A stretch of DNA of 64,000 nucleotides, taken from an uncultured archaeon (lineage in GTDB: Archaea; Thermoproteota; Bathyarchaeia; Bathyarchaeales; Bathycorpusculaceae). Position 1 is the stretch's first letter; each line of letters starts with the position of its first letter. Of this stretch, positions 20,811 to 40,957 are shown piece after piece. Location of the stretch: positions 107,929-171,928 of the forward strand of contig CAWALK010000011.1 of NCBI GenBank assembly GCA_963782915.1, written 5' to 3'. A model generated the notes under the pieces. That model was not told the origin of the DNA. It made no database searches and saw only the letters and a program-made list of their open reading frames with translations. A program made the position numbers and the translations under genes.

Positions 20811-20962
20811 TCTTTGGTATTTGGGTTGTGGGTTGCCACAAGTATGTTGATTTGGTTGGTTGTAATTGTGGGGTAGGTTACCCTTTGGCAATTTAGCTGA
20901 ATTTTAAATTTCAAGTGTTCTTGGGATTGGTGGCAAGGGAAAAATGTTTTACCACTCTGGAG

Positions 20963-22086: not shown

Positions 22087-22087
22087 A

Positions 22088-22615: not shown

Positions 22616-22887
22616 TACTCACGACCTTCAGCCACAAGTCTTGCTATACTTGCCCCTTTGAAGATCCTTGCGCCTATTTGCTCCAGCTCATCGTCAGTCA
22701 AATCGGGGGCGTTCCCAATCAAATCTTGAACTTTATCGCCTAAGAACAATTCAGGATGCTCTCTTAGGTAGGCTTCAGTAATTTTCCTTAGGGCTTCGCT
22801 TCTGCTCTTAAATAAACCCCTTGAGACTGCTTTGTCAACTTTCTTAACCACTATCTCGGGAAAACGAGACGTTATTATCTCTTCCAT
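22615..22887 (-). CDS. Ribbon-helix-helix antitoxin
   Basis: ITSRFP...VDKAVSRGLFKSRSEALR; palindrome AAATGTATACATTT upstream at 22907-22920. Confidence 0.75.
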   Translation of the reverse strand: MEEIITSRFPEIVVKKVDKAVSRGLFKSRSEALRKITEAYLREHPELFLGDKVQDLIGNAPDLTDDELEQIGARIFKGASIARLVAEGRE

Positions 22888-23027: not shown

Positions 23028-24499
23028 TTACGCTCTCGGGATTACTGCCAAGAATGGTTCTGGCTCCATGTTAGCGGTAGCATAAACCGCCAGTGCAATA
23101 CTCCAAAATACGTCGTCGTGTGTACCTTGCGGATGATAGAAGCCAGTATTGCCGTCCCTGCGCAAATCAAATCGTTCCACGTTGAGTTCAGTGCAGATAT
23201 TCGCCTCTGTAAGGTCGTTCCCAGTGGAGCAGGGGATAGAAGAATTGCTTGTTTAGCATACGTTGCTTAAGCAACCCAGCCATCTCACTTTTGCGGGGCA
23301 CACTAAAATTTACACCTTCAGCATTATTGATGCCGGCGTTTTCCATGTCGGCGATGAAGCTGGGACCCTCCCGTGTAAAATCTACCCGTATTTTCTCAAA
23401 GTCGCCCCAGCGGTCCTGCAACGCTTTAAGTAGCCTAAAACAGATGCGTATACCGTGGGTTGCTGGAAAATTTTTAGATGCCGCAAGTAGAGACGGTATC
23501 GTTTTGTTTTTCAACGACTGAGAGGACGCAATAGTCTCTGGTTTGCGCCAAATCCAAGCCCCGCAAAGAATTCACCGCTATGATTCAACCTCGGAGTCGA
23601 ATAATCGCAGTTCTTCGCCGCAGCTTGTCTGAGTGCCGATGCAGGAAGCAATAAGGCTCTGGTTTAGCCAGACATCGTCATCCTCAGCCCATTCGGCATC
23701 CATTTCACGGTGCCAACGTGATAGGTCATCGCCCATCTGAGTCTTAATCCGTTCGATAATGTTGGGTTTGAGTGGTCCGTTGGGGCTTAATGCTTTGGCG
23801 ACTGGTACATGAGAGGTTTTGAAATCAGAGAAATCCTTATGGTTGAAAATTTTGAAGAACACGCTATCGGTGTGCCAGGGTGTGCTGCTGCAGACGAATT
23901 TGCCATCGGTTGTTCCCAGCGTGTAGAGGATGGCGTCGTAGAGTTCTTGGTCGTTTGCTACAAAGTTGAATTCGTCAGCATATACTACATGTAAGCGTGG
24001 GTCCTCGGATTGTTTCGGGGTTGTTTGGGAAAGCTTCAATGCTGCTTCCGTTAGCGAAGTAGATTTGGGTTCGTTGCGGCTTGAAAGCTAATCCCGGCGG
24101 GTAGATTATGGGTGAAGAATGCGATTATGCGATATGATTCGTTTGGTTTGCCGCCAAGAAGGCCCAACGATGCCGATTGCACTATTGGGGTGACTGACTG
24201 CGTACCAGAGCAGCAGGGCGCAGATTATGTAGGTTTTTCCGCTTTGCCGGCACCATCGGGCTGCGGTAAATTGGTTGTTTAGAAATAGTTGGGCGAAGTC
24301 TATTTGGTACTGGATATGGTTGAAAGCCTAAAATGCGCTCAAAAAAAGCGGAGGGGTCACTGCTGAATCCTAATGTCTCCTGCTGAGTGGCTTGTATTAA
24401 GTGATTGTTGCTTTGCTGGAGATTATGCCATCGGGGCAGGATTTGGTTGGGTCGTAATGCCCTGGGTTCTTTCTGCTTTTTCCTTGAGTAGCTTCGCAT
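23028..24499 (-). CDS. terL: Terminase large subunit (multiple indels; start approximate)
   Basis: Walker A AARWCRQSGKT, Walker B VVYADEFN, coupling motif SSTPW, nuclease motifs GLDLAQ and HDDVFWS; ends MEPEPFLAVIPRA. Confidence 0.85.
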
Positions 24500-24887
24500 T
24501 TTGTTCCTCCATTTCTTTTAGTTTGGTTTCGATTTGTCTGTAGTTGATGTAGTCGGTGAGAAGTTCTTTGTAGGTTTTAGCGATGGTTGCTATGGCTTGT
24601 AATCGTTGGACTTCGATTTTGTTTAGTCCTGGTTTAGCAGCGGTTTTTAGGGCGCCTGCAAGCATTTTTAGGGTTTCCTCGACGCTTGGCAGTTGTTTTG
24701 GGAGTGGGATGGAGGAGTCTACGTAGCCTTTTGTTTGGGGTTTTATGTCGAGGCGTTGGCATTTTATGATTATGGCGGCGGGTGTTTTTTGGAGTTTGGC
24801 GGCTATTTCGTCTAGGCTTGTGTTTGCTTCTACGAGTTGTTTTAGTTCGGTTTCTTGTTGGGGGGTCCATTGTTTGCCTTTAGTCAT
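24423..24887 (-). CDS. Probable terminase small subunit (N-terminal HTH, helical core, coiled coil)
   Basis: Immediately upstream of and overlapping terL; MTKGKQWT...LDEIAAKL HTH. Confidence 0.55.
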   Translation of the reverse strand: MTKGKQWTPQQETELKQLVEANTSLDEIAAKLQKTPAAIIIKCQRLDIKPQTKGYVDSSIPLPKQLPSVEETLKMLAGALKTAAKPGLNKIEVQRLQAIATIAKTYKELLTDYINYRQIETKLKEMEEQNAKLLKEKAERTQGITTQPNPAPMA

Positions 24888-24915
24888 GGGTTAATTGCCT
24901 GTAGCAACGCTTATA

Positions 24916-24930
24916 TAACAATTATTGTTA
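24916..24930. promoter_or_regulatory. Palindromic operator candidate between divergent genes
   Basis: TAACAAT-T-ATTGTTA next to a TTATATAA TATA box. Confidence 0.4.
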
Positions 24931-24974
24931 AGTAATTGGCGTAATTAAACAGTGTTTGTTAATGGTGTAACTGT

Positions 24975-25418
24975 ATGTTGGGCAATTCGATGAGAAAGTA
25001 TGTTATGAGCGAAAATAAGAACGGTTACAGTAAAGCCGTGCAAGCCGTCTACAACACCCGAATCAAAAGCTATGCAAAACAAGCCATCCAAGATTTAGCG
25101 CTACTGGCGGAAAAATTACCTGAAGACCAACAAGCCGACATCTTCAACAGCGAAAACATGAAGCCATTATTCAAAGCCATCCTAAAACCGGCTCCGGAAG
25201 AAATTACCCAACTAACTCAAAACAAAGAACTGGCAAAGAAGAAAAGAAACCGTTTACGCCCACTCACCTATGAAATAATTACTTTACTAAATGACTCAAA
25301 CTTGTCATGGTTAATTGCACCCATAGGAGCCAGATATATGACAAAAGAAGGCGGATATTTAGCTCATTTAAAAGCGATTTATTACCGCAGCCTAGACGGC
25401 GGAGACGATGAAGAATAG
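24975..25418 (+). CDS. Hypothetical protein of the element
   Basis: 147-aa ORF, helical, no recognised motif. Confidence 0.55.
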   Translation: MLGNSMRKYVMSENKNGYSKAVQAVYNTRIKSYAKQAIQDLALLAEKLPEDQQADIFNSENMKPLFKAILKPAPEEITQLTQNKELAKKKRNRLRPLTYEIITLLNDSNLSWLIAPIGARYMTKEGGYLAHLKAIYYRSLDGGDDEE

Positions 25419-25556
25419 GCAGGATGGCATCGTTGCAAGTAAGTGGTGGAAGAGAATTGACAGTAGGTACGTACCTACGTCTGGGTGTAAAAAAAGTAAG
25501 CACTCCCTAGACGTTAGAGTGGAGGGTAACTAGGTCTGCGTTCGCAAGAACATCAT

Positions 25557-25961
25557 TTGCCTCTTTTCTTGAATGCTAAAATGCGTTTAGCGCTCATTAA
25601 ACTTCAAGCTGACAAAGAATTGGGACAATCATACGCTGGGCTCTATGCACTCAACGAAGGCTTACATGCCCTAAAGTACCTAAGTGATGAAGACTACCAA
25701 GCTTTCAAAAAACGTTACAGTGATAAACTGGTCAATGATCACCAAAATAATCGAAAATGCGAATTAGACCATCAAGCTCAGAAGGAAATCGAGAGTATGA
25801 CCCGTTACTTTAGCATGGTTATCGACCAATGGCACCTGCATCCAAACAGTGAATGGCGGAGTAAACAACTAAAAAAAGCCAAGGAATACGCAAACCGCAT
25901 ACCGAATGCTAGGGAGGTTTTGGATTTAGAGGAAAATTCACCGGAGATTCCCCATAACTAA
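25557..25961 (+). CDS. Hypothetical protein, possibly DNA-binding
   Basis: 134-aa ORF; N-terminus resembles an RHH-type segment. Confidence 0.5.
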   Translation: MPLFLNAKMRLALIKLQADKELGQSYAGLYALNEGLHALKYLSDEDYQAFKKRYSDKLVNDHQNNRKCELDHQAQKEIESMTRYFSMVIDQWHLHPNSEWRSKQLKKAKEYANRIPNAREVLDLEENSPEIPHN

Positions 25962-25978: not shown

Positions 25979-26194
25979 CTACTCGTCATTTGCCCCTTCG
26001 AATTCAGTGGGGTCTAAGCCTAAATTGGTTGCCCACTGTACATCTGCCAGGGCATCAACGAGTTTTCTTTGGGCATTCTTGTGCAGTCGGCTCACGGTTG
26101 GCGGATTAATGTTTAGTTTACGGGCTATTTTGTAATCGCTCAACCCTTGATTTGCCAACTCAAGAATCCGCCGTTCCCGATCAGTTAAAGCCAT
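25979..26194 (-). CDS. HTH regulator (LuxR/sigma-4-like), divergent from the structural operon
   Basis: LTDRERRILEL..QGLSDYKIARKLNINPPTVSR. Confidence 0.8.
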   Translation of the reverse strand: MALTDRERRILELANQGLSDYKIARKLNINPPTVSRLHKNAQRKLVDALADVQWATNLGLDPTEFEGANDE

Positions 26195-26218
26195 GGCACC
26201 GCTTCCTTTTGGATATAA

Positions 26219-26248
26219 AGGTTATTACTACTTTTGGGCTAATAACCT
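26219..26248. promoter_or_regulatory. Inverted-repeat operator between the HTH gene and the virion operon
   Basis: Perfect 9-bp inverted repeat AGGTTATTA-N12-TAATAACCT directly beside a TATA-like GATATAAA. Confidence 0.55.
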
Positions 26249-26285
26249 ATTTCCGCTTTCCCAGACATACCCATTCCCGATTAAC

Positions 26286-27020
26286 ATGCCAGAGAAAGAA
26301 ACCCAAAACCAAGCAAACCCATGCAGTCGAGGAGTAGAGCACCTCTTGACTGTTCTGCCCTTTAGTGTTCTGGAAAAAATGGCTGACAAACCTTTGAGGA
26401 TTCGGGGCGTAGCCATGACGGCTGGTATGAGCCGCAATCTTAACATCTATACACCTGAAGAGCTGCAAGCTTTCACCGGCAAGCTGGTAAATGCGCCGGT
26501 CTATATTGAGCATGTTTCTGTACCAAACGCCATTGGGAAAGTTACCAAAACCGATTGGGACGGCCATAGTCTCTGGTATGAAGCGGAAATTTATGATGAG
26601 TCAATCGCTGAGAAGATACGTAAGGGTTTAGTCCAGCATGTGAGCGTGGGTGCAGATTATGAAGCCGTCGATTTAGTGGATGGCAAGGTTCCTCATGGAC
26701 TTCATAACGCCGAGTTAAGTTTAGTGGCCGTTCCTGGAATTCCGGAAACTAACGTGCAGGTTTTAGAGAAACTCTCCCAAACAGAAGGCAGACTAACCGA
26801 GGCACAAAAGACCATTGAGGATTTACGCAAACAAGTCCCAGGAGGCGGTTTGCTAAAGAATCCACCAACGATGATAGCGGTTTCTGAAGCTATCAAGATG
26901 GTTGAGGCAGTTCTGCCTTCGCCTATGATTCAAAGAAGTTGGAGTCTTGGGCCTCAACGCATGTGCCAAGAACTCCGCAGAGTAGTCAAACAGCTAGAGC
27001 AGAAAGTAGGAGGCAGATAG
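26286..27020 (+). CDS. Prohead protease with short scaffold region
   Basis: PVYIEH...AIGKV...I.KGLVQHVSVG...ELSLVAVPG assemblin/HK97-type pattern; C-terminal coiled coil. Confidence 0.8.
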   Translation: MPEKETQNQANPCSRGVEHLLTVLPFSVLEKMADKPLRIRGVAMTAGMSRNLNIYTPEELQAFTGKLVNAPVYIEHVSVPNAIGKVTKTDWDGHSLWYEAEIYDESIAEKIRKGLVQHVSVGADYEAVDLVDGKVPHGLHNAELSLVAVPGIPETNVQVLEKLSQTEGRLTEAQKTIEDLRKQVPGGGLLKNPPTMIAVSEAIKMVEAVLPSPMIQRSWSLGPQRMCQELRRVVKQLEQKVGGR

Positions 27021-27104
27021 CTGTGTTTTTGCTCACTTTTGTGGGGAAGAGTACCAAAGGACGAACTTTGGGAAATTCAAGAAAAGAAATCGAATTGATA
27101 TTAA

Positions 27105-27533
27105 ATGACTGATAAAACAGGCAAAACTTGGATGGCTGTAGGAGAAACCGACGATCCGCAAGCGCTCATAGAATCTTTTGAAGCTGAAGCAGCAATCACC
27201 AAAGGCTCACCCGTCTATCTAAGCTCAGATGACAAGGTATCGACTAGCCCAGGCGGAGACGACGCCATAGGCGTAGCCGCCAAAACCGTTGCCATAGGCG
27301 AAATGTGCCCAGTGCTAAAACGTGGAAGAGTCAAAGTCAAAGCAAACGGAGCCATAACACGGGGCAAAGCAGTCTGCAGTGCTGCAAACGGCAAAGTTGC
27401 CCCATTAGTGGACCAACCGGTAGATGAAGGCGGAGCAGCAACCTACACAGTATTTTACAATCGCAAACTTGGAACCGCACTTGAATCAGCAATCGCAGAC
27501 GGCGACTTGATCTTCATAGGTGTGGAGAAGTGA
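27105..27533 (+). CDS. Capsid decoration/cement protein (DUF2190-like)
   Basis: AITKG.PV...AIGVA......GE..PV...G.V.V.A.GAI..G..V...ANGK...LG.ALE. Confidence 0.7.
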   Translation: MTDKTGKTWMAVGETDDPQALIESFEAEAAITKGSPVYLSSDDKVSTSPGGDDAIGVAAKTVAIGEMCPVLKRGRVKVKANGAITRGKAVCSAANGKVAPLVDQPVDEGGAATYTVFYNRKLGTALESAIADGDLIFIGVEK

Positions 27534-28493
27534 TTGCATTGAAGCCAAGACTTTTTGAAGCATTGATGGAAAGACCTAACGACCAACGTGAAGTTTACGA
27601 GAAGCTAAAGCAGAAAACTGAGCATCCCTTCATGAAGCGCTATGTCGCCATGGGCATAAAAGAAAACCTCTTTAGCGATATGACAGGTGCGCTTGGCAGG
27701 ATGCATGATACGCTTGTGCAGGCTGCGTTTCCTGAGTTGATTGGCAGAAACATCATCACAGTCATGCAAACCTCTGAAGCTACGGAGCGATTCCCACTTG
27801 ACACTGATACAATTGCTTACCGTTACTCTGAAGGCACTATAACGAGGCTTAGTGGCAAAAAGAACTCAATGGTAGATATCTACACAAACGTGCTTGCGGA
27901 TTCATCTGAGGAGTGGACTAGAGAGTTTCTTGAGGATGCAACCTGGAACGTCATGGATAACATGATTCAGAAGACTGGCAGAGCTTTAGGCATAAAGGAA
28001 ACCGAAGAGATCATCGCGCTCTATGGTGCAATCCAGGATGCAGATCTGGCTGGCGGTGCTCCTATCGCTGGAGGAAACGCTGTGCTTAGCTGGACAGGGT
28101 TGCTTAGACTGCATGATGCCGTTAGAAGCGAGAACTGGCATCCTACTGTACCTAGCAATCAATGAGACCCAACTCCATCAGTTGCTAAACGACGATAAGT
28201 TTGTTCACGCTCAGTATTTGCCGAGTAGTGAAACCGATATCCAGCAAGGCAGCATAGGCTCAGTGTTGGGTATGCAGGTACAAGCTAGCACTTTGATTCC
28301 CAACGGGACAGCGTATGCAATTGACACTCGAGTTGCTTCTGCAATGCTTCTACGTCGTGACATTACAGTTGAAGACTGGGAAGACATAAAGACCGGCAAA
28401 TACGGCGTTCGAGCAACCACACGGTTTGGAGCGGGTATTCTACGCGCTACAGCTGTTGCCAAAATGACCAACATCAAGACTACCCTAAGCTAA
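27530..28493 (+). CDS. HK97-fold major capsid protein (frameshift near 28150)
   Basis: TREFLEDA, G.VLGMQV..STLIPNGTAY, and G+RATTRFG.GILR..AVAK C-terminus; position in the operon. Confidence 0.85.
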
Positions 28494-28558
28494 AATGATC
28501 GTCAACGATCTAACCACTTTCCCTTTTTTTGGGTTAAAAATGTGAGGTTTATCCTGCT

Positions 28559-29794
28559 ATGAGCAAATTCATCCGAAAAATCAGCGAAATCCTGTCCTTT
28601 ACGCCTGCCTCCGGTGTGGCATCCCCTAAGCAGCGGGTGTTCTTTGACACTTCCTGCATACCCTTAGCAGACGTCTTGAAACTCTACTACCGTGATCCCA
28701 CCTGCAAGAGTAGTGTAGACTTGCTGGCAGCTTCAACGGTTGGCATGGGCTTCTACACTACAGCGGATAAAAAATACGACAAGGCATCCCAAGCTAAAGA
28801 GGTTGTCGACCGGTTCTGTGAGGATGTCAATCTCGATAGCTTGCTAAATGACATGGCAAAGCCGCTGATTGGTTGCGGAAACGATTTCTGGCTAAAACTC
28901 AACCCCGACAAACTAACTGACACTCTGCGCATGCCAATTGACGCCGTCCAACGGATAGGGCTAAGCTCTGTTCCCGACTTAAAGATTCCATATAAAGTCA
29001 CAGGTTACCAGCTTCTAAGCACATATGGCGGCGATACTAGAGCCGAGCTTAAGCCCGAAGCTGTAATTCATTGGCGTTTAAACGGCGATGTCCCCTCCGG
29101 GTTTGGCGTTGGATTGTTGCAGGTTCTCCTGCATTCGTTAACCATTGACACTGACAAGCGTCCCTCGTATGCTTGGATGAAGGCCAAGATAGAGAAGATT
29201 TTGCCAAACATCTTCACTAAATATGCTGGTCCCGATGTCGTTGTGCAGCTTGAAGGGCAAAAAGAAGATACCATCAAAAAATATGAAGCCGCGATTAAGA
29301 ACCGACCGGAAGAGGGGCAGTGGCTTTTTAGCGGCGCCAAATCTGTCGGCGTCTACCCAGTAACCATTGACCCAAGGGCACGCTTCGAATATTATATCGA
29401 CCACATGGTCAACCAATTTTACCTCGGATGCGAAACACCGCTTCCAAGGCTGTTTAGCACTCCAGGCTTCACTGAAGCATCGGCAAGGGCAGCGCTCGAT
29501 TTACAGGACATGCTCATTAAACCAGTCCAGCGGTACATCAAGCGCCAAGTTGAAAAAGAAATCTTCGCTTTCATTGTAGCTCAAAATGGGCTCGATCCCA
29601 CCAAAGCCAAAGTTAGGTTGAATTTTGGCAGTTCAGAAACACCCGAGTTAGTGGCCGCCGACATCATTAAAGCAGCTGAATTGGGGCTGATTCGTGCGGA
29701 GGAGTTCCGTAAGAACGCTGTCAAGTTCGGTTGGGAACTCTGGGATACCCAACCTGAAGCAGCAGTTCAAGGTAAGGAGGTAAAAAAGGAATGA
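28559..29794 (+). CDS. Portal protein
   Basis: 411 aa; Y..DP..KS.VD, GNDFW and EAVIHWR......FGVGLL portal-like motifs. Confidence 0.8.
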   Translation: MSKFIRKISEILSFTPASGVASPKQRVFFDTSCIPLADVLKLYYRDPTCKSSVDLLAASTVGMGFYTTADKKYDKASQAKEVVDRFCEDVNLDSLLNDMAKPLIGCGNDFWLKLNPDKLTDTLRMPIDAVQRIGLSSVPDLKIPYKVTGYQLLSTYGGDTRAELKPEAVIHWRLNGDVPSGFGVGLLQVLLHSLTIDTDKRPSYAWMKAKIEKILPNIFTKYAGPDVVVQLEGQKEDTIKKYEAAIKNRPEEGQWLFSGAKSVGVYPVTIDPRARFEYYIDHMVNQFYLGCETPLPRLFSTPGFTEASARAALDLQDMLIKPVQRYIKRQVEKEIFAFIVAQNGLDPTKAKVRLNFGSSETPELVAADIIKAAELGLIRAEEFRKNAVKFGWELWDTQPEAAVQGKEVKKE

Positions 29795-30138
29795 AGGTAT
29801 CAGCGGAAGACGTTAGAGACACCCTCAACCTAAAAGATTCGGATATTTCTGAGGTTAAAGTTCTGAAGATGATTAAGCGTGCCGAGGTCACTTTAGAGCT
29901 TGAACTCTCCGCTGATATTGACTACCAAAACTGCACCGATTCCCAAAAAGAAGCAATAACGCTCCTGGCTGCCATTTATGCAGTCTGCTACTTGGCTGGC
30001 GGTTCTGCTATCGGTTTGAACTTTAGCGTTGGTGACCTGACCAGTTCCAACTCAGCCTGGCCCAGCTTAACGGTGTTACAAAGCGAATTCGAGCGGGTCC
30101 TTGCCAGTCTCAAAGAAGTCTACGTGGGGAGCGTGTAG
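29791..30138 (+). CDS. Head-tail adaptor (gp6/gp15-like)
   Basis: VSAEDVR...I.RAE...A.YA...SVGDLT helical adaptor pattern, directly after the portal. Confidence 0.6.
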   Translation: MKVSAEDVRDTLNLKDSDISEVKVLKMIKRAEVTLELELSADIDYQNCTDSQKEAITLLAAIYAVCYLAGGSAIGLNFSVGDLTSSNSAWPSLTVLQSEFERVLASLKEVYVGSV

Positions 30139-30140
30139 CC

Positions 30141-31541
30141 ATGGGAACCGTTCCTGAAGCATATTTCCAATTCGTTATGGACTATGCGCCCTATGTCTAT
30201 GTGATAGCGCCTAATACACCGGATCCAGCGTTTGGCAAAGGCGTCCTAGCAGCAAGCTTTGCCCTTGATTTTCTCTGTGAAGCGTATTCAGCCCCGCAGT
30301 TCAAAGATAGACAAGCAGACATCTATGAAAAAATCGAGAGCTTAGCCGATTGGGTACTAACCCAACAATGCACTGATCCTGCAAAGAAGGCTTATGGCGG
30401 GTTCAAAAGCGCCGAGACCAGCACTTACTATTACAGTGTAGATGCTTGCAGAGCCATCCCATCACTTCTAAAAGCCTACGAACTCACAAAAGACAGTGAA
30501 TACTTGGAGGCTGCAAAGCTAGCTGGCGGAACTTTCCTCAAAACCATGCAAGATAAGCAAACATACGGCGGCTTCGCTAGAGCAGTCACAATCCAAGATG
30601 CTTGGCTTTTGCAGATGGATATAGAATGCCTCTATGGACTCATTGGCTTAAACAGGCTAGCCAAAGGTTATCATGAAGGTGATGAAGGTAAGGAATACGC
30701 ATACGATCGTATGATGGATAGGGCAGCGTTTTTTCTTTGGCAAGGCTTTGAGAATCTTTGGCTAACTTTTGACCCTTCAGATGGCAATTGGCACAGAGTG
30801 GGCTTAACTGAAAATGAGGTTTACGATGACCCGTTCGCCTACGCCTTGCTGGGACTGTATGAGTTTGAAGGCTGGAGTGTCAGCTGCCAAAAAGTCTACA
30901 ACGCCCTAAACAACATCAGAGCTAGCGGAAAGTATCCAGCTTATGACCCTGCAATTTGCTGGGCTGGTTACATAGATGTGCTTAATCGATTCTCAGCTTG
31001 CGACTACTACGACGCCGTCACAAGCGGGATCCTTTGGAAAATCCGCCAAAACCACGACAAGCCAAGCTTTAAACTCAGTGTAGAAGTCATCGGCAAACAT
31101 GCAGCTGAATTCATGTATTGGGGCGCCAAACACACAGACTACAGCTATGTTGAAAATAAGCAGGCAATGGCGACCGTTTGCTGGTTAGCCGAGCTTTTCC
31201 TACATTACGAGGAGCCTGTAACTCAGTTTACAAAGATTCTGATGAGTAAAGGGGAAACGGTGACGCTCTATTCTGTTCGAGAAGCCGCTGCAACAGTCAC
31301 TTATGGCGAACCGTTGGATTTGTTAGCCGTTGTTTCCTCACTCAAAGCTGAGCAAGTCATGTTAGAAGCTGGCTACTACCTGAACGACTACTTGGCGTTC
31401 TATACGTTTCTCCCAGTTAGGGTTCATGACAAACTTAGGCGTCAAGGCGAAGACTACGAAATCCAAACAGTAACGCCCTTCACGTTTGCGAATCAACGGT
31501 TCTACTTCAAAAGCATCGCAAGGAGGCTAATCGCAAGTTGA
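30141..31541 (+). CDS. Alpha/alpha-toroid domain fused to a C-terminal head-closure-like domain
   Basis: Helical repeats (ADWVLTQQ...YGGF; LLKAYELTKD.EYLEAAK); the last ~110 aa GETVTL...DKLRRQGEDYEIQTV...YFKSIARR resemble stopper proteins. Confidence 0.55.
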   Translation: MGTVPEAYFQFVMDYAPYVYVIAPNTPDPAFGKGVLAASFALDFLCEAYSAPQFKDRQADIYEKIESLADWVLTQQCTDPAKKAYGGFKSAETSTYYYSVDACRAIPSLLKAYELTKDSEYLEAAKLAGGTFLKTMQDKQTYGGFARAVTIQDAWLLQMDIECLYGLIGLNRLAKGYHEGDEGKEYAYDRMMDRAAFFLWQGFENLWLTFDPSDGNWHRVGLTENEVYDDPFAYALLGLYEFEGWSVSCQKVYNALNNIRASGKYPAYDPAICWAGYIDVLNRFSACDYYDAVTSGILWKIRQNHDKPSFKLSVEVIGKHAAEFMYWGAKHTDYSYVENKQAMATVCWLAELFLHYEEPVTQFTKILMSKGETVTLYSVREAAATVTYGEPLDLLAVVSSLKAEQVMLEAGYYLNDYLAFYTFLPVRVHDKLRRQGEDYEIQTVTPFTFANQRFYFKSIARRLIAS

Positions 31542-32556
31542 GCGAAGTAGAGAACCCAGTCATAACAATTCTGCGCCTAATCGAGTCACGGATAAGAGTC
31601 GTCAAAGATGACGGCGGCTTAGCCAGTGTCCTTTGTTCTCAAGCGAACTATGACCGGGAACTGCTCAAAGACTACGATGCCCAAATAACCGTGTCCAAGA
31701 CCTCTGAGCCTTGCCAAGCGCAGAAACACACCTTAGACGGCAAACTAAGAAGACGCATCTACTCCCTTCGGGCAACCATAGTAACCATTGACAAGCCATT
31801 TGCAGGTGCAGACGTCGGCAGAGTCATGCGAGACAAAGTGCTTGAGCAGCTACTGTTGATTATTCCCGAAAACCGCAACCTACCCTACAGGACATTCTAC
31901 AACTTTTACCCGATTGACTCAACGTCTGCAACTCACAAAGCCTATAGTGCAGTTGCCGCAACCGAGCCTGAGCCATCTAACTCAGCTTGGACAGAACTGT
32001 CAAATCCTGAGTATGCGAACCTTTGGGGAAGCGATGACCTTAGAACCTCTAAAAGCGCAACTGGCAATGGCGAGTTTGCGTTTATGCTATTCCGCTTCAA
32101 AATAGGCTCTAAAGCTGGAGAGAGCCGAAATGAACCCAGAAAACAGTGCTTAAAGCGCGTAATTTTGGCGTTTGAAGGTTTTGGGCTTGCACCACAGGGA
32201 AACGGCGTTACCCTAAAAGTATGGGATAACTTAGCCAGTGCTTGGAGCAATCCACAAACCGGCGTTTTGCGGAACAGACGAAACCCTCACTATCACTCTA
32301 ACGTCAAACCTCACGAACTACGTCAACGATGACGGCTTCCTATACCTGATGGCACGAACAACCAACCCCTCAGATGGGGTTTCGTCTGCCGTTTTGTACT
32401 GCGATTTTGTCCAAGCAACCGTTGACGTATGGGGCATAACATTTTGCGACGTTCACAGTTTCCGAGACGTCGATGTAGTTGATGTTAAGCCGTTTCTCTA
32501 CAAAGAAGAAATCGTCATTGCTGGCTTGGCTCTTCGAGTCAGTTGCCATTTCCTAG
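31538..32556 (+). CDS. Probable tail terminator with inserted beta-rich domain (frameshifted)
   Basis: Lies between the stopper and tail tube genes; ORFs 31538-32332 and 32238-32684 join. Confidence 0.45.
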
Positions 32557-32572
32557 TCACAGGTGAAACAAT

Positions 32573-33437
32573 ATGGTGGACACCTATCACTCAGACCAAG
32601 AAAAATTCTACTACGTTACCGAAGGCTCTTTCGGCGTGGTTCCAGCTAGCCCGGCAATGCTTGGGCACTCCTGCAGCAATCTAGAACCTGACATAAACCC
32701 AAACAACATCCGAGTACCTGGCACAGGCTCAATTGATGTGGTCGCACTTAAGCGTGGATTAAGACAGCCACTTCTGAAAGTCAAGTACCCCATCCCATCG
32801 GATGCACCTATCAACTTTCTCCAGTACGTCAAACAAGAACTCAACGTCAGCCTTTCCCTGCAAGTGCTCTACTACAAAGACCAATTCGCCTTCGCCACCG
32901 ACATCATAAGCCTACTCTACAAGGGCGCCCGATTCAACAAAGCAACCCTAACATGCGACATAGACGGCCTCTTGGAGTGCGAAGCCGAGTTTCCAGCCCA
33001 AGATATAGAAGTCTACAACAGCCAAAATTACAGGCGCTTCATACTCCGAATATGCCGGCGCTGTTTCAGGCAGTGAAAGCTATGTCAAAATCGGCGGCGT
33101 AACTTGCGAGCGTGTTACTTCTTGGAAGCTGCAGATTGACAACTCCTGCAAAGCTGTCCCGGTCATAAGGTCTGTTAATGGGCATTTGGCGAAGTATCTC
33201 ACTTGGGGTAAGCGGCTACTGACTGGAGAACTCAACTTTGAGTTTGAGAGCAAACAAGAAGCCGACGACATCTTAGCCGACACCGAGCAATCCAGCTTAG
33301 AATTCGGGTTAGGCGGCGTCAACAAAGTTAGCGTTGAGCATACCAAATGGGATGACTTTTCATTAAGCGGCAAATCCGAGGACCTGATCTACGCAAAGGT
33401 TCCTTTCACAGCCAGAGGACCGCTCAGCATTTTATAG
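32573..33437 (+). CDS. Tail tube protein (frameshift near 33010)
   Basis: YVTEGSFGVVP N-terminus, beta-rich, GKRLLTGELNFEF; followed by the tail chaperone. Confidence 0.7.
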
Positions 33438-33455
33438 TTACGGAGAAATCAAGAG

Positions 33456-33985
33456 TTGAAAACAGAAAAAGTTGAGATTGATGGCAGATTCGGCGAAGAA
33501 TACAGGGGCACCTATACCTTTGCTGAGATAACGTGGGCTAAACGAAACCGCATCATCCAAAAACACACCAAATACAACAAGCTATCCGGCGACGTTGAAA
33601 GCAGCGATTTCATAGCCATACAAGCGGAAACCATTATGGCTAGCATGCATGGCCAACCCCAAAGCCACCCCATAACGCTGGAAAAGCTGCTGGGCGAAGA
33701 AGACGGTATTCCGATTGAGCTTGGGGAACTTTTCTCTAAAGTAGTCAACAAGCTAAACGGCATGCCACGGGAGGATTTGCGTTTTTTACTAGAGCAGTTA
33801 GACGAGGAAAGCCGCACAGCGCTCTTGTCGAGTTTAGGCTATGTCAAACCTTCGGCTGGACCCCAACCCAACTTGCAAAGCAGCCAGCCCGAACAATCCA
33901 GGAGTTCTGCCACATCTTGAACGTGATGGACGAAATGGCTGAGGAAGAAAAGCGAAAAGCGGAGCGTGAAGCAAAACGGCAGTAG
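33456..33985 (+). CDS. Tail assembly chaperone G (ends 33920) with -1 frameshift product GT (ends 33985)
   Basis: In-frame slippery heptamer T TTT TTA at 33782-33788; the -1 frame reads ...LCQTFGWTPTQLAKQP... Confidence 0.75.
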
Positions 33986-34344
33986 AAGTAACCTGCGACA
34001 TCCAAGGCGTAGAAGAATTCAAAGCAGCTATGCAAAGGTTTGATTCAGGCATGCAGCGTGAGGTTCATAGCTTTTTGGCTAGCTGGGCTGCCGACGTCAA
34101 AGCTGAAGCCATGCGCCTTGTTCCAGTCCGCACAGGTTATCTTCGAAGCACAATCTATGCGAAGGTTCAGCAGTGGGTCGTAGAAGTTGGAGCAGATGCT
34201 GCTTATGCACTATTGGTTGAGTTGGGTACTAAATACATGCAGGCGCATCCTTACCTATATCCAGCAATCCAAGAATACCTGCCCCAACTGGAAACAGTAG
34301 TTATAGCAGCCATTGAGCAAGCCAAAGCGGAGGCTGGTCTATGA
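33976..34344 (+). CDS. HK97 gp10-like tail completion protein
   Basis: PVRTGYLRSTI...YALLVELGTKYMQAHPYLYPA signature; the frame extends upstream to ACG at 33976. Confidence 0.85.
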   Translation, partial: TAVEVTCDIQGVEEFKAAMQRFDSGMQREVHSFLASWAADVKAEAMRLVPVRTGYLRSTIYAKVQQWVVEVGADAAYALLVELGTKYMQAHPYLYPAIQEYLPQLETVVIAAIEQAKAEAGL

Positions 34345-34925
34345 GTTTTCGAGAAATAGCTCTGACCATCCGTGCGGTTAACCGTGCAAGCACCGAATTT
34401 AACAGAATCCAAACCGACGCTGAAGCACTTGCAGCACGGGTCAAAAGTTTAGGCTCAACTCTAGCTGGCTTGGGCGCTACAGGTACCGCTATTGGTTATG
34501 TCGCCAACCAGTTTGGAATACTGAACGATGCCGAAATGAAGGTTTTCAACTCAACCATGATGGTTGTCTCAGTCATGGGTATGTTCCTGCGCACAAGCAC
34601 AGGTTTAGCCGTGGCTCAAAAGGTTTATTCTGCAGCTTGTTGGGTAGCAACTGCAGCTCAAAATGCATTAAACATCAGCTACGGAACCTTCCTCGCACTA
34701 ACAGGAGTCGGAATCGCCGTCATTGTCGCGGCTACCGCTGCCATGGTGTATTTTGCCAGCAGCATGAACAATGCTACGGCTAGCGTGCAGAACTTTAACT
34801 CGACAGCAGCTGAGACGCCTGCACATACGCGAGGTATTCAACGGGCGGGCGAATCAGCAGTGACTTCTGGTTCTCGTAGCGGTAGTTCATCAGATGCTTC
34901 TTTCTATCGCAGAGGAGTGGAATAG
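34341..34925 (+). CDS. Very short tape measure protein (194 aa)
   Basis: Typical N-terminus IALTIRAVNRAS, Ala-rich helices, hydrophobic segments, position after the chaperone. Confidence 0.7.
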   Translation: MSFREIALTIRAVNRASTEFNRIQTDAEALAARVKSLGSTLAGLGATGTAIGYVANQFGILNDAEMKVFNSTMMVVSVMGMFLRTSTGLAVAQKVYSAACWVATAAQNALNISYGTFLALTGVGIAVIVAATAAMVYFASSMNNATASVQNFNSTAAETPAHTRGIQRAGESAVTSGSRSGSSSDASFYRRGVE

Positions 34926-36530
34926 ATGAGCGTTAATCCGCCGGCTATATCGATTGCTTTGGGTTCTGTTGCGGTTCCCCAATCTGACGTTATAGAAGCC
35001 ACTGTGCATTTGGGTGCCACTAAAGAGGTTAGCAGCTGGGAGCTTCGACTTCAAAACTGGAATAGTAAATACAGCCCAAACGGCACCTATCCGCTCAATG
35101 TAGGCCAAGACGGCTACATCTGCATAGGCAGAGACACCAGCGTACCTCAACTCATCACTACAAGAACCGAGAGTATCAAGTTTCAATCAAGACCTGCAGA
35201 GCACTATGTTATTGTGGCTGGGCGATGTTGGGGCGAGAAGCTCTTTCGGCAAACAGTCACTAAAGACTATTCAGGTTCCAAAGGCGAAGACATAGTCAAG
35301 GATATCTTGGATTCTTTTTCAGGACTAAGCCATTTACGTGGCAGCACTGAACTGGTTGAGAACACAGATACAACTTTCACCGACTTCAAAGTGCAAGATA
35401 CTCAAGTTTGGGATATATTGCAAAAAATCGCCCAAGAAAGCGACAAAAATGGCGCCATTGGCTATGACTTTCGTACAGCACCGGAGGGTAAATTCGAGTT
35501 TTTCCCAAGAGCAACCAAAACCAGCCCCGTTACCCTCACAGACAAGATAGAATCCTATGAGTACTGGAAAGAAATAATTGCCCTCAGAAACAAAGTCACA
35601 ATCTTCGGAGCCCAAGACAAAAGCGCACCCTTAAACAAAGTTGACTGGACACAAAGCCTAACCCCAACCATATGTAGTTGGTCAGCAACCGCAGGCGAAA
35701 TCAGCATTGAAAACTCAATGGGCAGCCCCAACAGCATAAAACTACACGTAGAAAACAACTACTTCGGCGGCGCCCTCTTCACTTTAAACCCAACCTATTG
35801 GGTTAACACCAACATGTTTCCTGAACTGCACTTTGCCATCCAAAAAGAAACCTACTTCGACGGCCACTCCATGGTCATCTTGTTCGATACCTCCAACCGC
35901 GCAGCTAGCCGCCTCTATAGTTTTCAATCGCCCGGTAACGGTGGTATAGCTAATCAGTGGACAAGTGAAACATTCAAAGTTGGCGCTCTGAATGCTTCAG
36001 ATTGGTCGGTTGAAGCTGGTTTCGATTGGTCACAGGTAAATCGAGTTGGCTTTTACTGCTATCCAAGTCAGGTGACAGGTTCAGGTAGCTTTTGGATTGA
36101 TAAATTCTACTTTGGCGGCTTACGCTACAGCAGTATCCAGCAAGATGCGGCTAGCCAGGCATCTTATGGGCTTAGGGAGTTTATGGATGTTGATGAAGAG
36201 CTTTGGAGTGACATCGAATGCTCACTTAGAGCACGAGCCATTCTAGCCAATATGAAGGATCCGTTTGAATACATCGCACTCAAGAGCACCGTTATCGATT
36301 ACGGGGTTACACCATTTTTTGCAGCTGATATTGTAGCTATTGCTCTTCCAAATGAGAATGTAAGTGGAAATTTTCGTATTCTAAGCGCCGAATACCACGT
36401 CAAAGCCGAAAGTGGGGAACTAGAAGTTTCATTGGAACTTGGACGTGAGAAGTCGCTTTTGGCAGATTATGTGTACGCTTTGCGGTCCAAGGTGGATCGT
36501 GTTAACAGGTACAAGGTTGCGAGGTTATAG
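34926..36530 (+). CDS. Baseplate hub / tail-tip protein with inserted beta-sandwich
   Basis: L.LQNW..KY, WDILQKIA, G.FEFFPR and SQASYGLRE hub-like motifs. Confidence 0.65.
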   Translation: MSVNPPAISIALGSVAVPQSDVIEATVHLGATKEVSSWELRLQNWNSKYSPNGTYPLNVGQDGYICIGRDTSVPQLITTRTESIKFQSRPAEHYVIVAGRCWGEKLFRQTVTKDYSGSKGEDIVKDILDSFSGLSHLRGSTELVENTDTTFTDFKVQDTQVWDILQKIAQESDKNGAIGYDFRTAPEGKFEFFPRATKTSPVTLTDKIESYEYWKEIIALRNKVTIFGAQDKSAPLNKVDWTQSLTPTICSWSATAGEISIENSMGSPNSIKLHVENNYFGGALFTLNPTYWVNTNMFPELHFAIQKETYFDGHSMVILFDTSNRAASRLYSFQSPGNGGIANQWTSETFKVGALNASDWSVEAGFDWSQVNRVGFYCYPSQVTGSGSFWIDKFYFGGLRYSSIQQDAASQASYGLREFMDVDEELWSDIECSLRARAILANMKDPFEYIALKSTVIDYGVTPFFAADIVAIALPNENVSGNFRILSAEYHVKAESGELEVSLELGREKSLLADYVYALRSKVDRVNRYKVARL

Positions 36531-36534
36531 AACG

Positions 36535-36948
36535 ATGAGTAAACAAATCCTAAAACTATTAGAAAACATAAAACCCGGCGATCTAATCGCCATCGACTGG
36601 TGCGACGCTTCAGTAGGCAAAAGCAGCGGCTCAGGCATGACCATAGATGTCCCAGTGAAAAGTTGGGGCATATTCGTCGGTTTAATCGGCGATAGGGTTA
36701 AGCATATTGTGATTGCTCAGAACAGTTTCCGCTATGCCGACGGCATGTTCGATTTAGACTACACCGCCATCCCTATCGGTTGGGCGTTGGGCGTTACAGT
36801 TTTAGTCAAAGAGCATATTCCCACCGAATCAGCTAGCAGACTTGTTAACAGTTTCATGATGGGCGGACATCGTTCAATGAATCGCTCCAGAACTTTTCGG
36901 AGAGCACTTGCACAGCGGAGGTTGAGCATAGATGGCAGACACTATTAA
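36535..36948 (+). CDS. Small phage hypothetical protein (WxDA family)
   Basis: IAIDWCDAS...SWGIFVG...IVIAQN...TAIPIGW. Confidence 0.6.
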   Translation: MSKQILKLLENIKPGDLIAIDWCDASVGKSSGSGMTIDVPVKSWGIFVGLIGDRVKHIVIAQNSFRYADGMFDLDYTAIPIGWALGVTVLVKEHIPTESASRLVNSFMMGGHRSMNRSRTFRRALAQRRLSIDGRHY

Positions 36949-37174
36949 GCGCGCTTTGACTAGAAGGCGCTTTGAGAGGGGCCGTCTCATCGTTGAGGAA
37001 CCCACTGCTAAGCTTGTGTTGGGTGTAAAATTTGCCATCGGCATGACTGCGTTCATGTCAGCCCTTGAGTTGGCGCACTTAATCATTTTACATTCGTGGA
37101 ATGCTGAAATCTTCGCTTCTATCACCGGACTGAGCGGTACAGTCATTGGGTTGTTTGTGGGGCAAAAAACATGA
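36932..37174 (+). CDS. Small two-TM membrane protein (holin-like position)
   Basis: 80 aa with a basic N-terminus and two hydrophobic helices. Confidence 0.5.
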   Translation: MADTIKRALTRRRFERGRLIVEEPTAKLVLGVKFAIGMTAFMSALELAHLIILHSWNAEIFASITGLSGTVIGLFVGQKT

Positions 37175-37248
37175 TGAAAAGTAATCCATGGCGGGTAGAG
37201 GATGAGAAGATGGAGCCTGAATTAGGTCTAAGAGTTATTCCAAGGTGA
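37171..37248 (+). pseudogene. 25-aa TerS-N/TerL-C fusion remnant (deletion scar)
   Basis: Reads MMKSNPWRVEDEK-MEPELGLRVIPR; the last 12 aa match the TerL end MEPEPFLAVIPR at 9 of 12 positions. Confidence 0.6.
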
Positions 37249-38735
37249 CAAAAATGACCAGAAGACGAAATGAACCCTTCCGCATAACCCAGTTCCGAAG
37301 AATCTACAACAGAGAAGAAGGAAAATTTACCTTCAACATAAGCTATGAAACCCACACCAAAATAACGCCTAGGAGCCTTGTTGTGGCTGAAGCGTTTGGG
37401 TTAGGCATCGATGAAGCCCAGCGGTTCAAGGTTTTGGATGCTGAACTAAAGATTGGACCCAAAGACATAACGTATATCACAGGGGATTCGGGAAGCGGAA
37501 AATCCGTTTTGCTGCGGGCAATCAGGGCAGATTTAGGCGATGAAGCCATTGATTTGACAGAGGTTGCAGTGGACCCGGACAAGCCTTTAATTGAAACTGT
37601 CGGCGCCACCGTCGAGCAAGCCTTAGAACTCCTGAGTAAGGTAGGCTTAAACGATGCTTTCCTGTTTTTACGCTCTTACAGCCAACTCAGCGACGGACAA
37701 AAATACCGCTACAGAATCGCCAAAATGATTGAAAGTAAAGCCAAATTTTTTCTGTGCGATGAATTTTGTGCTTGCCTTGATCGAGACACTGCCAAAATAA
37801 TCGCCTACAATCTGCAGAAAATCGCACGGCAGCAGGGCAAAGCAGTCATAGCTGCCACAACCCACAGCGACTTACAAGAAGACCTTAAACCCAGCGTACT
37901 TGTGCGTAAGCGGTTTGGCGAAGAAATCCACATCGACTACTACCCAAACACCCCAGCAGCCGAATGCAGCTTAACCAAAGAAATGAAAATAGAGCCGGGA
38001 ACAAAGGAAGACTGGAAAAAACTAAGCCCTTTCCACTATAGAGGCCATGGCATTTCGGTCCCTCGAAAAATATTCAAAATGACAAGGGGTGATGAGCTCT
38101 GCGGCGTCATCGTCTATACTTACCCGCCTCCAGCATGCTACGGACGACGACTTGTGCTACCAAGAATGACAATGCAAGAAATCAACCAAAAACTAAGCAC
38201 AATAAACCGCATAGTAATTCACCCCAAATACAGAACTATAGGTCTCGGAGAGAAAATAATCCGTGAAACGCTTCCGCAAGTCGGCACACCAAACGTTGAG
38301 TTGATGGCTGTAATGGCAAAATATTCACCTTTTGCCGAGAAAGCAGGGATGCAAAGAGTGGTTGAACAGCAGTCAGTTGAAAGTGTTAAAACTTTAACGC
38401 AGACACTTCTAGCGGCTGGGATTCAATTTGCAGCTTCTTGGCAGTCAGCACTATGTAGAATCAAAACTCCAAAACCTAACTGAGGAACAAATAATGGAAC
38501 TCAAGACTGCCTTTATGGCAAACAAGCATCCACGATTCAAAAAAGAGGTAGCCAGCAGACCGACATAACCCATATGGAAAAACATCCGATTACCTGACAT
38601 ACGTGCAAAACGGCTGACAACTCGAGAATTGGCAGGTTGATTAAGATTCTTGCAATGCTATCCCAAACAAAAGTTTACCTGTTTTGGAAAAATGATAACG
38701 GATACGAACTGTCAAGAGACGTGAGTAAGGACTAA
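37245..38735 (+). CDS. ABC-type ATPase fused to a GNAT (Mom-like) acyltransferase (frameshifts near the 3' end)
   Basis: GDSGSGKS, LSDGQKYR, CDEF and ATTH motifs, then FHYR...INRIVIHPKYRTIGLG (GNAT motif A). Confidence 0.8.
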
Positions 38736-40957
38736 AAATTAATTGATCACTCTGAGGATTTAAGTAGCCATTTCCAGAGTGGAAGGAATACAACTGCTTT
38801 GTTATTTACTACTGTAGATGCTTCGTAATCCCACGTGATAACGAGCATATTATCACAATTCAATTCTATGGCAGCAACATTGAAGGATTCAAGCTCTCTT
38901 TGGTCTATTTCGTTTTTTGCTGAGGCGTAGGTTACTTGTATAAGCTGTTGGATTGACTCTGCAGTTTTAACGATAAAGTCGATTTCTTTTCCGGTGTGAT
39001 CTTTCCAGTAATAGAGTTCGTATTCTGGATAGAAGTATAGTTTTCTTCTTAATAGCTCTATGAACACTATGTTTTCCATTAATCTGCCGGGGTCTTTGCT
39101 TAGTTTAAACGCTACATTGTTGGCTAAGCCGGTGTCGATGCAGTAAACCTTCTTTGGGGCTTTGAATTGCTCTTTGAGTTTATAGGAAAATCTTTCTAGC
39201 AGAAATATGAGGTAGGCGTCTGAGATGTATGCGGTGTATTTAGCTATTGTATGTGGATCTTTTATTTCTAGGGTTGTTTTTAGTTTGTTGAAGGTGATTT
39301 CTTTTGCGCTGTTTGAGATTAAGTATTTTGCGAGTTCTCTTAGGTTTTGGGTTTTTCTTATTTTGTGGTGCCCTATAATGTCGTTTTCTATTATGTCCCT
39401 ATAAATCTCGTTTAGCATTATGCTGCCGAACTTGCCAACTTCTGGGAAGCCTCCTTTCTCAATGAACTCTAAAAGGGTTTTTTTTACCATGACAACGCTA
39501 CTTGTGGAGTAAGCCCAGTTTTCGGTTAAGGTTATGTTTTTTGTTCGTAGATATTCTTTGAAGCTGAATGGTAGAAGCGTTACATCAATGTGTCTGCCTG
39601 TTAGGAAAGTAGCGAGGTTTCCCCTCAGGAGGTCTGAGTTACTGCCAGTTATTACTATTTTTTTTGTTGTTCTAAGTCTGCTAACGAATCTTTCCCAATC
39701 GGGGACTTTCTGTATCTCATCAAATACAAAGTATGTTACGTCGTTGCCGTACAATTCGTAAAATGCTTGTATAACTTGGTTTAATTCTTCGGCTTTTAAG
39801 TCAATTAGTCTTTCATCGAAGAAGTTTATGTAGCCGAATTTTTCTTTGCTGAGTAGTAGCCAGGAAAATATAGATTTGCCGCATCGTCTAATGCCCAAGA
39901 TAGCTAACACGTTGGGTTTTGATAGATAATTTTTAACCTGTGTAGTATCTATGTCTCTGTTTATGATTGGTTCTCTTTCAAAAAGACCTTCTACGTCTTC
40001 TTTTTGGGATGTGATTATAGCTTTAAGCTCTTCAATATTCATGTACTCTAAACTAATCGCATAGTTTTATAAAAAGTGTGTTGTTAGAGTGATAGAAACT
40101 TTAAAGACTGATGTCCTTATCGATTCAGGGGCAACCACTACTTTCATTCCGTTTGATACTTAAATCACTTCCAAAACGTTTCTTGAGCACAGAGGTAGTA
40201 ATTTGGAAAAAACAAAGAAGGAATTCACGGCCTACATGAGAGGGGATATTTTTTCAAGGACCAAAATTTGTAATCGAAAAAATGGCACCTTGTATAAAGA
40301 GCATGGATGAAATACTAAACAAACCTAAGTAGACTTCTTGCTATAGCCCGCTTCAAAAGGCGTGCTCTTTAATAATGAACGAGGGCTATTTTGTTGTTTT
40401 AGTTAAGCATTCTGCCCTTTGCAAGAATCGTTAGAGCATGAATTGAACCATATTCTAAACAATTACGATAGCACCTAGAAAACGCATTCTCTTTGGCAGG
40501 TTTCACTGTAATACCAGCAGATGTTAAATTGAAAGACGCTTATAAAAAACATAAAACTCCAGCGCGCGTTGAATTGATCGCTGTAATGGCAAAATATTCG
40601 CCCTTTGCCGAGAAAGCAGGTATGCAAAGAGTTGTTGAACAGCAGTCAGTTGAAAGCGTTAAAACTTTAACGCAGACACTCCAGCGGCTCGGATTCAATT
40701 TACAGCTTCTTGGCAGTCAGCGCTATGTAGAATCAAAACTCCAAAACCTGACTGAGGAACAAATAAAGGAACTCAAGACTGCCTTTATGGCAAACAAGCA
40801 TCCGCGCTTCAAAAAAGAAGTAGCCAGCAACCGACATACCCCATATGGAAAAACATCCGATTACCTGACATATGTGCAAAACGCTGACATCTTGAGAATT
40901 GGCAGGTTGATTAAGATTCTTTCGATGTTGTCGCAAACAAAGGTTTACCTGTTTTGG
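38295..40957 (+). repeat. ~390-bp imperfect direct repeat (38295-38687 and 40568-40957)
   Basis: Both copies encode VEL.AVMAKYSPFAEKAGMQRVVEQQSVESVK...QTKVYLFW. Confidence 0.9.
38747..40042 (-). CDS. AAA_14 ATPase with DUF4143-type C-terminal domain
   Basis: GIRRCGKS, FDEIQ, ITGSNS, GGFPE, KKVYCIDTGL, ENIVF.EL and EIDF motifs. Confidence 0.9.
   Translation of the reverse strand: MNIEELKAIITSQKEDVEGLFEREPIINRDIDTTQVKNYLSKPNVLAILGIRRCGKSIFSWLLLSKEKFGYINFFDERLIDLKAEELNQVIQAFYELYGNDVTYFVFDEIQKVPDWERFVSRLRTTKKIVITGSNSDLLRGNLATFLTGRHIDVTLLPFSFKEYLRTKNITLTENWAYSTSSVVMVKKTLLEFIEKGGFPEVGKFGSIMLNEIYRDIIENDIIGHHKIRKTQNLRELAKYLISNSAKEITFNKLKTTLEIKDPHTIAKYTAYISDAYLIFLLERFSYKLKEQFKAPKKVYCIDTGLANNVAFKLSKDPGRLMENIVFIELLRRKLYFYPEYELYYWKDHTGKEIDFIVKTAESIQQLIQVTYASAKNEIDQRELESFNVAAIELNCDNMLVITWDYEASTVVNNKAVVFLPLWKWLLKSSE

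Follow-up and report, generated by a model that had tools for sequence, protein, structure and literature searches.

A 25-codon reading frame as the probable scar of an in-frame terS-terL deletion in a defective Bathyarchaeia provirus

The loss of packaging genes from an integrated virus can leave traces that are easily taken for their replacement. In this study, we analysed a stretch of 64,000 nucleotides from a member of the Bathyarchaeia (hereafter the window) and conclude that a 25-codon open reading frame (ORF) in it is very probably the scar of an in-frame deletion of the terminase genes terS and terL in a defective provirus, that a second terminase pair lying upstream is part of a separate unit and has a dead terL, and that no swap of packaging genes is now in place. 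The original prediction had read the same arrangement as a terminase swap. Two of its elements stand, namely the deletion of the resident pair and the presence of a diverged pair elsewhere, but the supposed replacement does not appear to work, as its terL is a pseudogene and the neighbouring head-tail module is damaged, and it does not appear to be a moved copy of the resident pair either. Because the upstream packaging pair is itself broken, the case is, as it stands, one of ordinary provirus decay rather than of a working gene swap.

Results

The short ORF and its two halves

The features discussed here are collected in Table 1. The product of the short ORF is MMKSNPWRVEDEKMEPELGLRVIPR, followed by a stop, and the ORF is coupled to both neighbours in the way originally described: its ATG overlaps the TGA of the holin-like ORF in an ATGA, and its own TGA overlaps the GTG of the next ORF in a GTGA. 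When the C-terminal 12-mer, MEPELGLRVIPR, was compared with the six-frame translation of the window, the best non-self match was MEPEPFLAVIPR, with which the upstream terL ends (at about 23069, minus strand), and 9 of 12 residues are identical; none of 300 shuffles of the 12-mer reached 9 (maximum 8), and the claimed likeness to the end of a TerL is therefore real. The N-terminal 12-mer agrees with the start of the upstream terS, MTKGKQWTPQQE, at 4 of 12 residues, while an unrelated place in the window scores 6 of 12 and shuffles reach 5-7. Inside the window, then, the N half is no closer to the upstream terS than chance, and its homology is validated by relatives only. The claimed likeness of the scar's start to TerS thus fails against the upstream gene (4/12, chance level) and holds against the resident-type terS of the relatives described below.

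Table 1. Coordinates of the features in the window, with the state of the left unit at the other loci of the genus
Feature	Position or locus	Strand	Remark
Upstream terL, predicted pseudogene	23028..24499	-	ends in ANMEPEPFLAVIPRA and a stop; homologous segments in each of the three frames
Upstream putative terS, 154 aa, intact	24423..24887	-	starts MTKGKQWTPQQE; overlaps terL start
TATA-like box TTATATAAC	24911..24919		in the divergent intergenic region between terS and o24975
o24975, 147-aa ORF of no known family	24975..25418	+	divergent partner of the upstream pair
o25557, 134-aa ORF	25557..25961	+	also follows o24975 in L143 (81% identity)
Head-tail module: protease, cement protein, major capsid protein (frameshifted), putative portal, tail genes	26193..36530	+	
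Putative portal, 411-aa ORF	28559..29794	+	by position and size only; no Pfam/PHROG match
Conserved ORF upstream of the holin-like gene	36439..36948	+	132 aa used in searches (from 36550); almost all relatives with the holin-like gene have it in synteny
Holin-like ORF, 80 aa (label from the original prediction)	36932..37174	+	homologues directly before terS in relatives
25-codon scar ORF	37171..37248	+	putative: 13 codons of terS start (37171-37209), last 12 terL codons and stop (37210-37248)
ABC-ATPase gene with C-terminal acetyltransferase-like part	37245..38483	+	412 aa; corrupted 3' end
ABC-gene 3' end, first copy (direct repeat)	38294..38687	+	92.6% identical over 394 nt to 40567-40957; corrupted frame
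Inserted AAA_14/DUF4143 ATPase gene	38747..40042	-	flanked by the 394-nt repeat of the ABC-gene 3' end
ABC-gene 3' end, second copy, intact	40567..40957	+	behind the inserted AAA_14/DUF4143 gene
Inverted terS-terL beside o24975, both present	G015:C2, G015:C6, G122:C12, G069:C24, G112:C6, L143		
terL split beside o24975	G026:C105		
Last third of terL only beside o24975	G108:C6		

Relatives carry terS-terL in the same slot

A search of IMG/VR with the ABC protein yielded 60 loci, and 61 related genomes yielded 19 further loci; the contents of the slot between the holin-like and ABC-ATPase genes were scored by tblastn with the window's proteins and with the intact terS and terL of a paralogous locus, C12. 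The original prediction had expected homologous elements to hold terS-terL between these two genes, and that is the prevailing arrangement: terL lies in the slot in 39 of the 47 IMG/VR loci that show both genes (the eight without it being L022, L034, L035, L056, L060, L064, L067 and L071), and in 19 of 19 when the holin-like protein shares 85% identity or more with that of the window. Among these 19 closest loci, 17 are of the resident terS+terL type and two (L018, L023) have another terL, 29-31% identical. The other 13 of the 60 loci show no holin-like match upstream, and in L032 and L041 terL still stands right before the ABC gene. At the 19 genome loci, taken with 1.5 kb flanks, terL is found right upstream of the ABC gene in 10, a holin-like gene without terL right upstream in seven, and neither in two.

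The resident-type loci agree closely at the two junctions: in 18 of 18 loci (A/G)TGA joins the holin-like gene to terS, and terL closes with AGGTGA immediately ahead of the ABC gene. Their terS begins MTKGKPWP(A/T)(D/E)DEK at the homologous place behind the conserved end of the holin-like gene. Compared with these 18 loci, the first 39 nt of the scar match the terS starts at 21-29 positions and the last 39 nt match the terL ends at 28-32 positions, where the best random ungapped match over whole loci is about 21-23/39. The two matches lie 1810-1834 nt apart in the relatives, and about 1.8 kb (1.77-1.80 kb) of what they carry is missing from the window. Against the upstream pair the scores are lower than against the resident type (20/39 for the head, 22/36 for the tail). 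Since the two halves match the terS starts and the terL ends of relatives, we infer that the ORF unites codons 1-13 of terS with the final 12 of terL. The in-frame deletion of a resident terS-terL with both junctions kept, as it had been predicted, agrees with these data: the start overlap and the AGGTGA-bearing 3' end of terL have been retained.

Based on these comparisons, we propose that a single internal in-frame deletion of about 1.8 kb would have removed everything from putative terS codon 14 to terL codon -13 (counted from the end) in a tailed Bathyarchaeia provirus. Such a deletion would spare the beginning of terS, where it overlaps the holin-like stop codon, and also the last 12 codons of terL, whose AGGTGA would offer a probable ribosome-binding site to the ABC-ATPase gene. 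That gene is likely to start at the ATG at 37254, behind AGGTGA, and the motif, six bases before this ATG and within the kept terL tail, is probably its Shine-Dalgarno site. What remains would be a defective provirus, in which the terL of the upstream unit has decayed to a pseudogene and no working terminase is left in cis. Synteny, the homology of both scar halves and the frame breaks can be read directly from the compared sequences and are consistent with this course, whose order of events is our reconstruction.

We considered, and rejected, that the resident pair had been cut out and pasted in at the upstream site: the scar is nearer to the resident type than to the upstream pair, and the upstream unit appears to be old and separately conserved. 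We also rejected the idea that the scar represents the two homology arms of an exchangeable cassette, that is, an "empty slot"; it fails on the 5' side, as the cassettes of L016, L018, L023 and L057 start with unrelated codons and the terL tail alone is common to them. In these four loci a terL of 29-31% identity, without a terS homologue, fills the same slot. The other terL type of L016, L018 and L023 keeps the last residues EPEPF(L/F)(T/A)VIPR before its stop as well as the TGA-overlap junction in front of the ABC gene, which reads AGGTGA in L018 and L023 and ACGGTGA in L016. Overall, the contents of the slot vary between the resident terS-terL, this second terL type, other genes, and nothing.

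State of the provirus and its surroundings

The provirus carries further lesions. The ABC product, labelled ATPase-GNAT in the original prediction, has a clear ATPase domain (PF00005, 45.7 bits, E 1.3e-11, above the cut-off; phrog_293, E 7.8e-36; phrog_886, E 1.2e-19) and, in its C-terminal part, a weak acetyltransferase match (phrog_11841, E 0.0065), with no Pfam GNAT family at E <= 0.01. In relatives the ABC gene encodes 482-483 aa, and in the window the frame is shifted over a stretch within its last part (38385-38690), where two stops occur. The major capsid gene, which is intact and encodes 317-320 aa in C18 and G062, has a 1-nt insertion near 28151 relative to both and is thereby broken into ORFs 27530-28165 and 28023-28493; this single-base frameshift could be an assembly error. 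Neither Pfam nor PHROGs gave a match for the holin-like ORF, and the scanned ORFs between 8476 and 48879 yielded no integrase and no replication family. The G+C content, 0.46-0.49 up to about 38 kb, drops to 0.36-0.40 from there on. With ARAGORN and Rfam, no tRNA was seen close to the element in the window or in the C12 and C13 loci, the sole tRNA lying at 63005-63066, and the idea of a remnant at a tRNA attachment site was rejected for this reason. PF12942 (ammonia-oxidiser) had no match, and the control genomes were also without one.

Several other observations concern the surroundings of the element. Two PIN/AbrB-type toxin-antitoxin pairs and an RHH-like ORF (20963-22887, minus strand) stand directly beside the upstream terL, and an AbiEi-like gene (41085-41933) and a PLD-nuclease gene (46417-48879) follow to the right, which together with the toxin-antitoxin pairs gives an island-like neighbourhood. 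Elsewhere in G000, packaging-gene remnants sit between host genes: on C12 (230302-232591) an intact terS-terL, behind which 79 aa of the C-terminal part of the ABC gene survive, on C13 (4339-6401) terS/terL alone, and on C19 (100993-101451) a lone terS-like gene. C18 (14075-30500) carries a second, more degraded head-tail module, broken by CheB/CheR-PAS-kinase-like ORFs at about 18500-21800.

The upstream inverted pair

The original prediction took the upstream terL for a replacement gene and overlooked that 23028-24499 is not open and is spread over three frames. Aligned with the intact C12 paralogue (72.9% nucleotide identity over 1459 aligned nt), it shows 23 indels, of which 20 are not multiples of 3, and one in-frame stop, and no uninterrupted frame of about 485-490 codons runs through it. 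Long genes close by, of 411, 466 and 534 codons, have open frames, so the breaks in terL are not general assembly noise, and to judge from its reading frames the gene is a pseudogene in the window genome. A 153-aa fragment of it matches PF03237 (19.4 bits, E 9.1e-4, below the cut-off of 22) and phrog_2 (E 4.3e-6). The intact relatives are clear members of the TerL family by their profile matches: the terL of C12 reaches 61.4 bits for PF03237 (Terminase_6N; cut-off 22) and E 3.2e-36 for phrog_2, and the left terL of G015 reaches 57.7 bits and E 1.6e-35. In a quick TerL tree of 52 rows the window pseudogene is sister to C12 (SH-aLRT 99), and these two, with L040, form the sister group of a 22-row clade that holds the resident-type genes.

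For the small gene the picture rests on gene order. No TerS family profile of Pfam or PHROGs matched the proteins of the window, C12, G015 or L017, so that "terS" is named by position alone; the best profile matches of the upstream protein are a GcrA-like HTH (E 0.0011, below the cut-off) and phrog_323, "transcriptional regulator" (E 1.7e-8). The position is a consistent one: in the left pair of the window and on C12, as at the left-unit loci and at 17 of the 19 closest IMG/VR loci, a small gene directly precedes terL and overlaps it. The upstream terS is 66.9-77.9% identical to the terS of other left-unit loci, and an IMG/VR search with it returned four distant loci at 47-48% identity.

A separately conserved left unit

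The upstream pair is accompanied by o24975, and we refer to the group as the left unit. Homologues of o24975 were found in 15 of the 120 genomes of the genus, the window's own included, and the left unit is seen at nine loci of the genus, namely the window and eight more with an inverted terS-terL beside o24975 (Table 1), with flanks that differ from locus to locus. It occupies 23028-25961 in the window and 130705-133057 in G015:C2, and was also seen at L139, L128, L129, L141 and L143. As to the claim that the diverged pair at 23028-24887 stands under its own promoter, the pair is indeed present on the opposite strand, and the TATA-like TTATATAAC in front of it, invariant in seven of seven aligned left-unit loci, may act as a promoter. 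Among intact copies of the left unit, dN/dS is 0.02-0.09 for terL, about 0.2 for terS and 0.1-0.2 for o24975, values of which we use the direction alone (well below 1), as dS is saturated or undefined in many pairs. Their direction suggests that the unit is under purifying selection, strong for terL. These comparisons indicate that the upstream terL and terS form, with the divergent o24975 and o25557, a distinct unit that is conserved separately.

Could the left unit have replaced the resident pair?

The strongest competitor of the deletion-and-decay reading is a functional swap, in which the lineage would package its DNA with the divergent upstream terS-terL, would have lost the resident pair as redundant, and would now be seen after integration and decay. 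We regard this as unlikely. Its best case is G015:C2, where the order is that of the window: an inverted, intact terL (484-aa ORF), terS, o24975 (89% identical) and then a head-tail module, in which the stop of the holin-like gene overlaps the ATG of the ABC gene directly (ATGA) without any scar codons (locus L075, 153060-157193). An arrangement of this kind, in which the upstream terL is intact and the resident pair absent, is in keeping with a genuine replacement at some earlier time. The N-terminal variant of the ABC protein in G015 also differs from that of the window, and because both the junctions (a 25-codon scar against a clean ATGA) and these variants differ, the two losses of terS-terL look independent, each beside the same unit; the window (G000) and G015:C2 are the two loci at which a left unit stands beside a head-tail module without terS-terL. 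The low dN/dS of the left-unit terL and the conserved TATA-like box before its terS point in the same direction.

The evidence on the other side weighs more heavily. A working replacement would combine an intact terL with an intact head module, and in the window the terL reads as a dead gene and the capsid gene is frameshifted. In G015:C2 itself, the head genes follow o24975 at a distance of 9.6 kb, across genes that are mostly host-like and of which one has dozens of paralogues in G000; several of its structural genes are also broken up between reading frames. Moreover, these two are the only ones of the nine left-unit loci with head genes behind the unit. At the other seven, no head genes follow o24975 in the 1-35 kb of sequence present: there are none within 35 kb in G112 and G108, and the remaining loci without head genes end on the contig 1-8 kb behind o24975. 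At E <= 1e-30 the ABC gene is missing from G122, G108 and G149; in G026, G069 and G112 a resident-type terL adjoins the ABC gene elsewhere in the genome. Finally, no IMG/VR contig carries o24975. Deletion followed by decay therefore remains our preferred reading for the window.

A bolder version concerns the left unit as such. It might be an autonomous packaging module, kept under strong purifying selection in varied contexts and able to take over packaging for neighbouring head-tail modules, with the resident terS-terL lost twice independently beside it. We hold this to be improbable, although, if true, it would mean that archaea have a terminase system built as a module, possibly satellite-like or domesticated.

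The junction and its alleles

A degenerate 24-nt pattern of the junction occurs once in the window's own genome and was found in none of the 119 other genomes of the genus and on no IMG/VR contig. Short contigs from two other studies span the junction (four runs compared), which speaks against a misassembly. Record 25 of run X4 covers 37090-37240 with five mismatches and no gap, its right arm being 31 nt long, and record 20 of run X3 spans 37131-37266 and has extra bases at two places, 12 nt in frame behind 37207 and two insertions of 1 nt each at 37250-37251; both records are 151-nt contigs with a depth of about 2. By its alignment, the X3 record would represent a second, slightly longer allele of the scar.

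The existence of such an allele, differing by an in-frame insertion, is one of the arguments for the view that the scar ORF has been kept for a function, either as a device that couples expression of the ABC-ATPase gene to the ribosomes translating the holin-like gene or as a TerL-tail peptide that hinders the packaging of related viruses. The open frame with both overlaps retained would suit this view, and so would the apparently independent deletion in G015, which likewise preserves the coupling of the holin-like gene to the ABC gene. Furthermore, the tail EPEPFL(T/A)VIPR is kept even in the terL type of 29-31% identity, which indicates that the tail matters to these viruses. In the scar, however, this tail has drifted (EPELGLRV vs EPEPFLTV in relatives; 28-32/39 vs a mean of 33.9/39 among the relatives themselves), as fits relaxed constraint, the ABC gene that would be coupled is itself damaged, and an in-frame outcome has a prior of one in three. 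We therefore consider a retained function very improbable next to a plain scar of deletion.

That the ORF is an artefact, a chance short frame or a join made by assembly error, is barely credible: none of the seven public runs found contains more than 0.10 of the region's sampled words and the N half is at chance level against the upstream terS, but both halves are homologous to the exact terS and terL ends of 18 relatives, the junction is bridged by contigs of two other studies, and none of 300 shuffles attained the score of the C half.

Discussion

Our reading of the window has consequences at two levels. From the scar, the way in which an archaeal provirus may be disarmed can be read with unusual clarity: one cut of 1.8 kb would take away the packaging motor and leave both junctions behind. 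The scar also marks the slot between the holin-like and ABC-ATPase genes as a recombination hot spot in a widespread family of Bathyarchaeia viruses. The left unit of terL, terS and o24975, being small, conserved, apparently selected and mostly without head genes, may matter more than the scar; if it works alone, it bears on how packaging specificity moves between archaeal viruses.

Cryptic or defective prophages, such as those of E. coli K-12, decay by deletion. The provirus in the window resembles them in that an integrated tailed virus loses essential genes through internal deletions and point lesions while fragments remain; here the packaging genes are gone, a frameshift breaks the capsid gene, and the scanned ORFs include no integrase or replication family. 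Unlike the cryptic prophages, the host is an archaeon, and the in-frame deletion would have kept both translational junctions, so that it reads as a neat 25-codon ORF. A second comparison is with the modular, moron-accretion view of tailed phages, which reportedly goes back to Hendrix and colleagues and sees these genomes as mosaics of exchanged modules. The slot between the holin-like and ABC genes, as a hot spot with alternative contents, is in keeping with such mosaic exchange. The difference is that nothing has been inserted in the window: a cassette appears to have been cut out, with its two ends left in place.

Closer to the host, tailed viruses and proviruses of Bathyarchaeia have been described with the hallmarks of Caudoviricetes, an HK97-type capsid protein, a portal and TerL, and with integrated proviruses among them (Duan et al. 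2024, PMC10848311; PMC11705971, which covers 38 archaeal proviruses). As far as the passages compared go, the provirus in the window shares with theirs the host class, the hallmark genes and the integrated state. Those of PMC10848311 mention no terminase deletion scar, ABC-ATPase/acetyltransferase gene or divergent terL-terS unit, and those of PMC11705971 mention no terminase deletion scar, acetyltransferase gene or divergent terL-terS unit; the literature searched likewise yielded no account of the scar or of the left unit.

The left unit, for its part, can be set beside the SaPI/PICI satellites, which bring their own small terminase and thereby redirect the packaging of their helper (PMC9026076). 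Measured against the satellites as that source presents them, the left unit differs by having a full terL too, one that appears to be dead in the window genome. It is like them in that genes of packaging specificity stand apart from the head genes that they might serve, in a unit that is small and that occurs in varied contexts.
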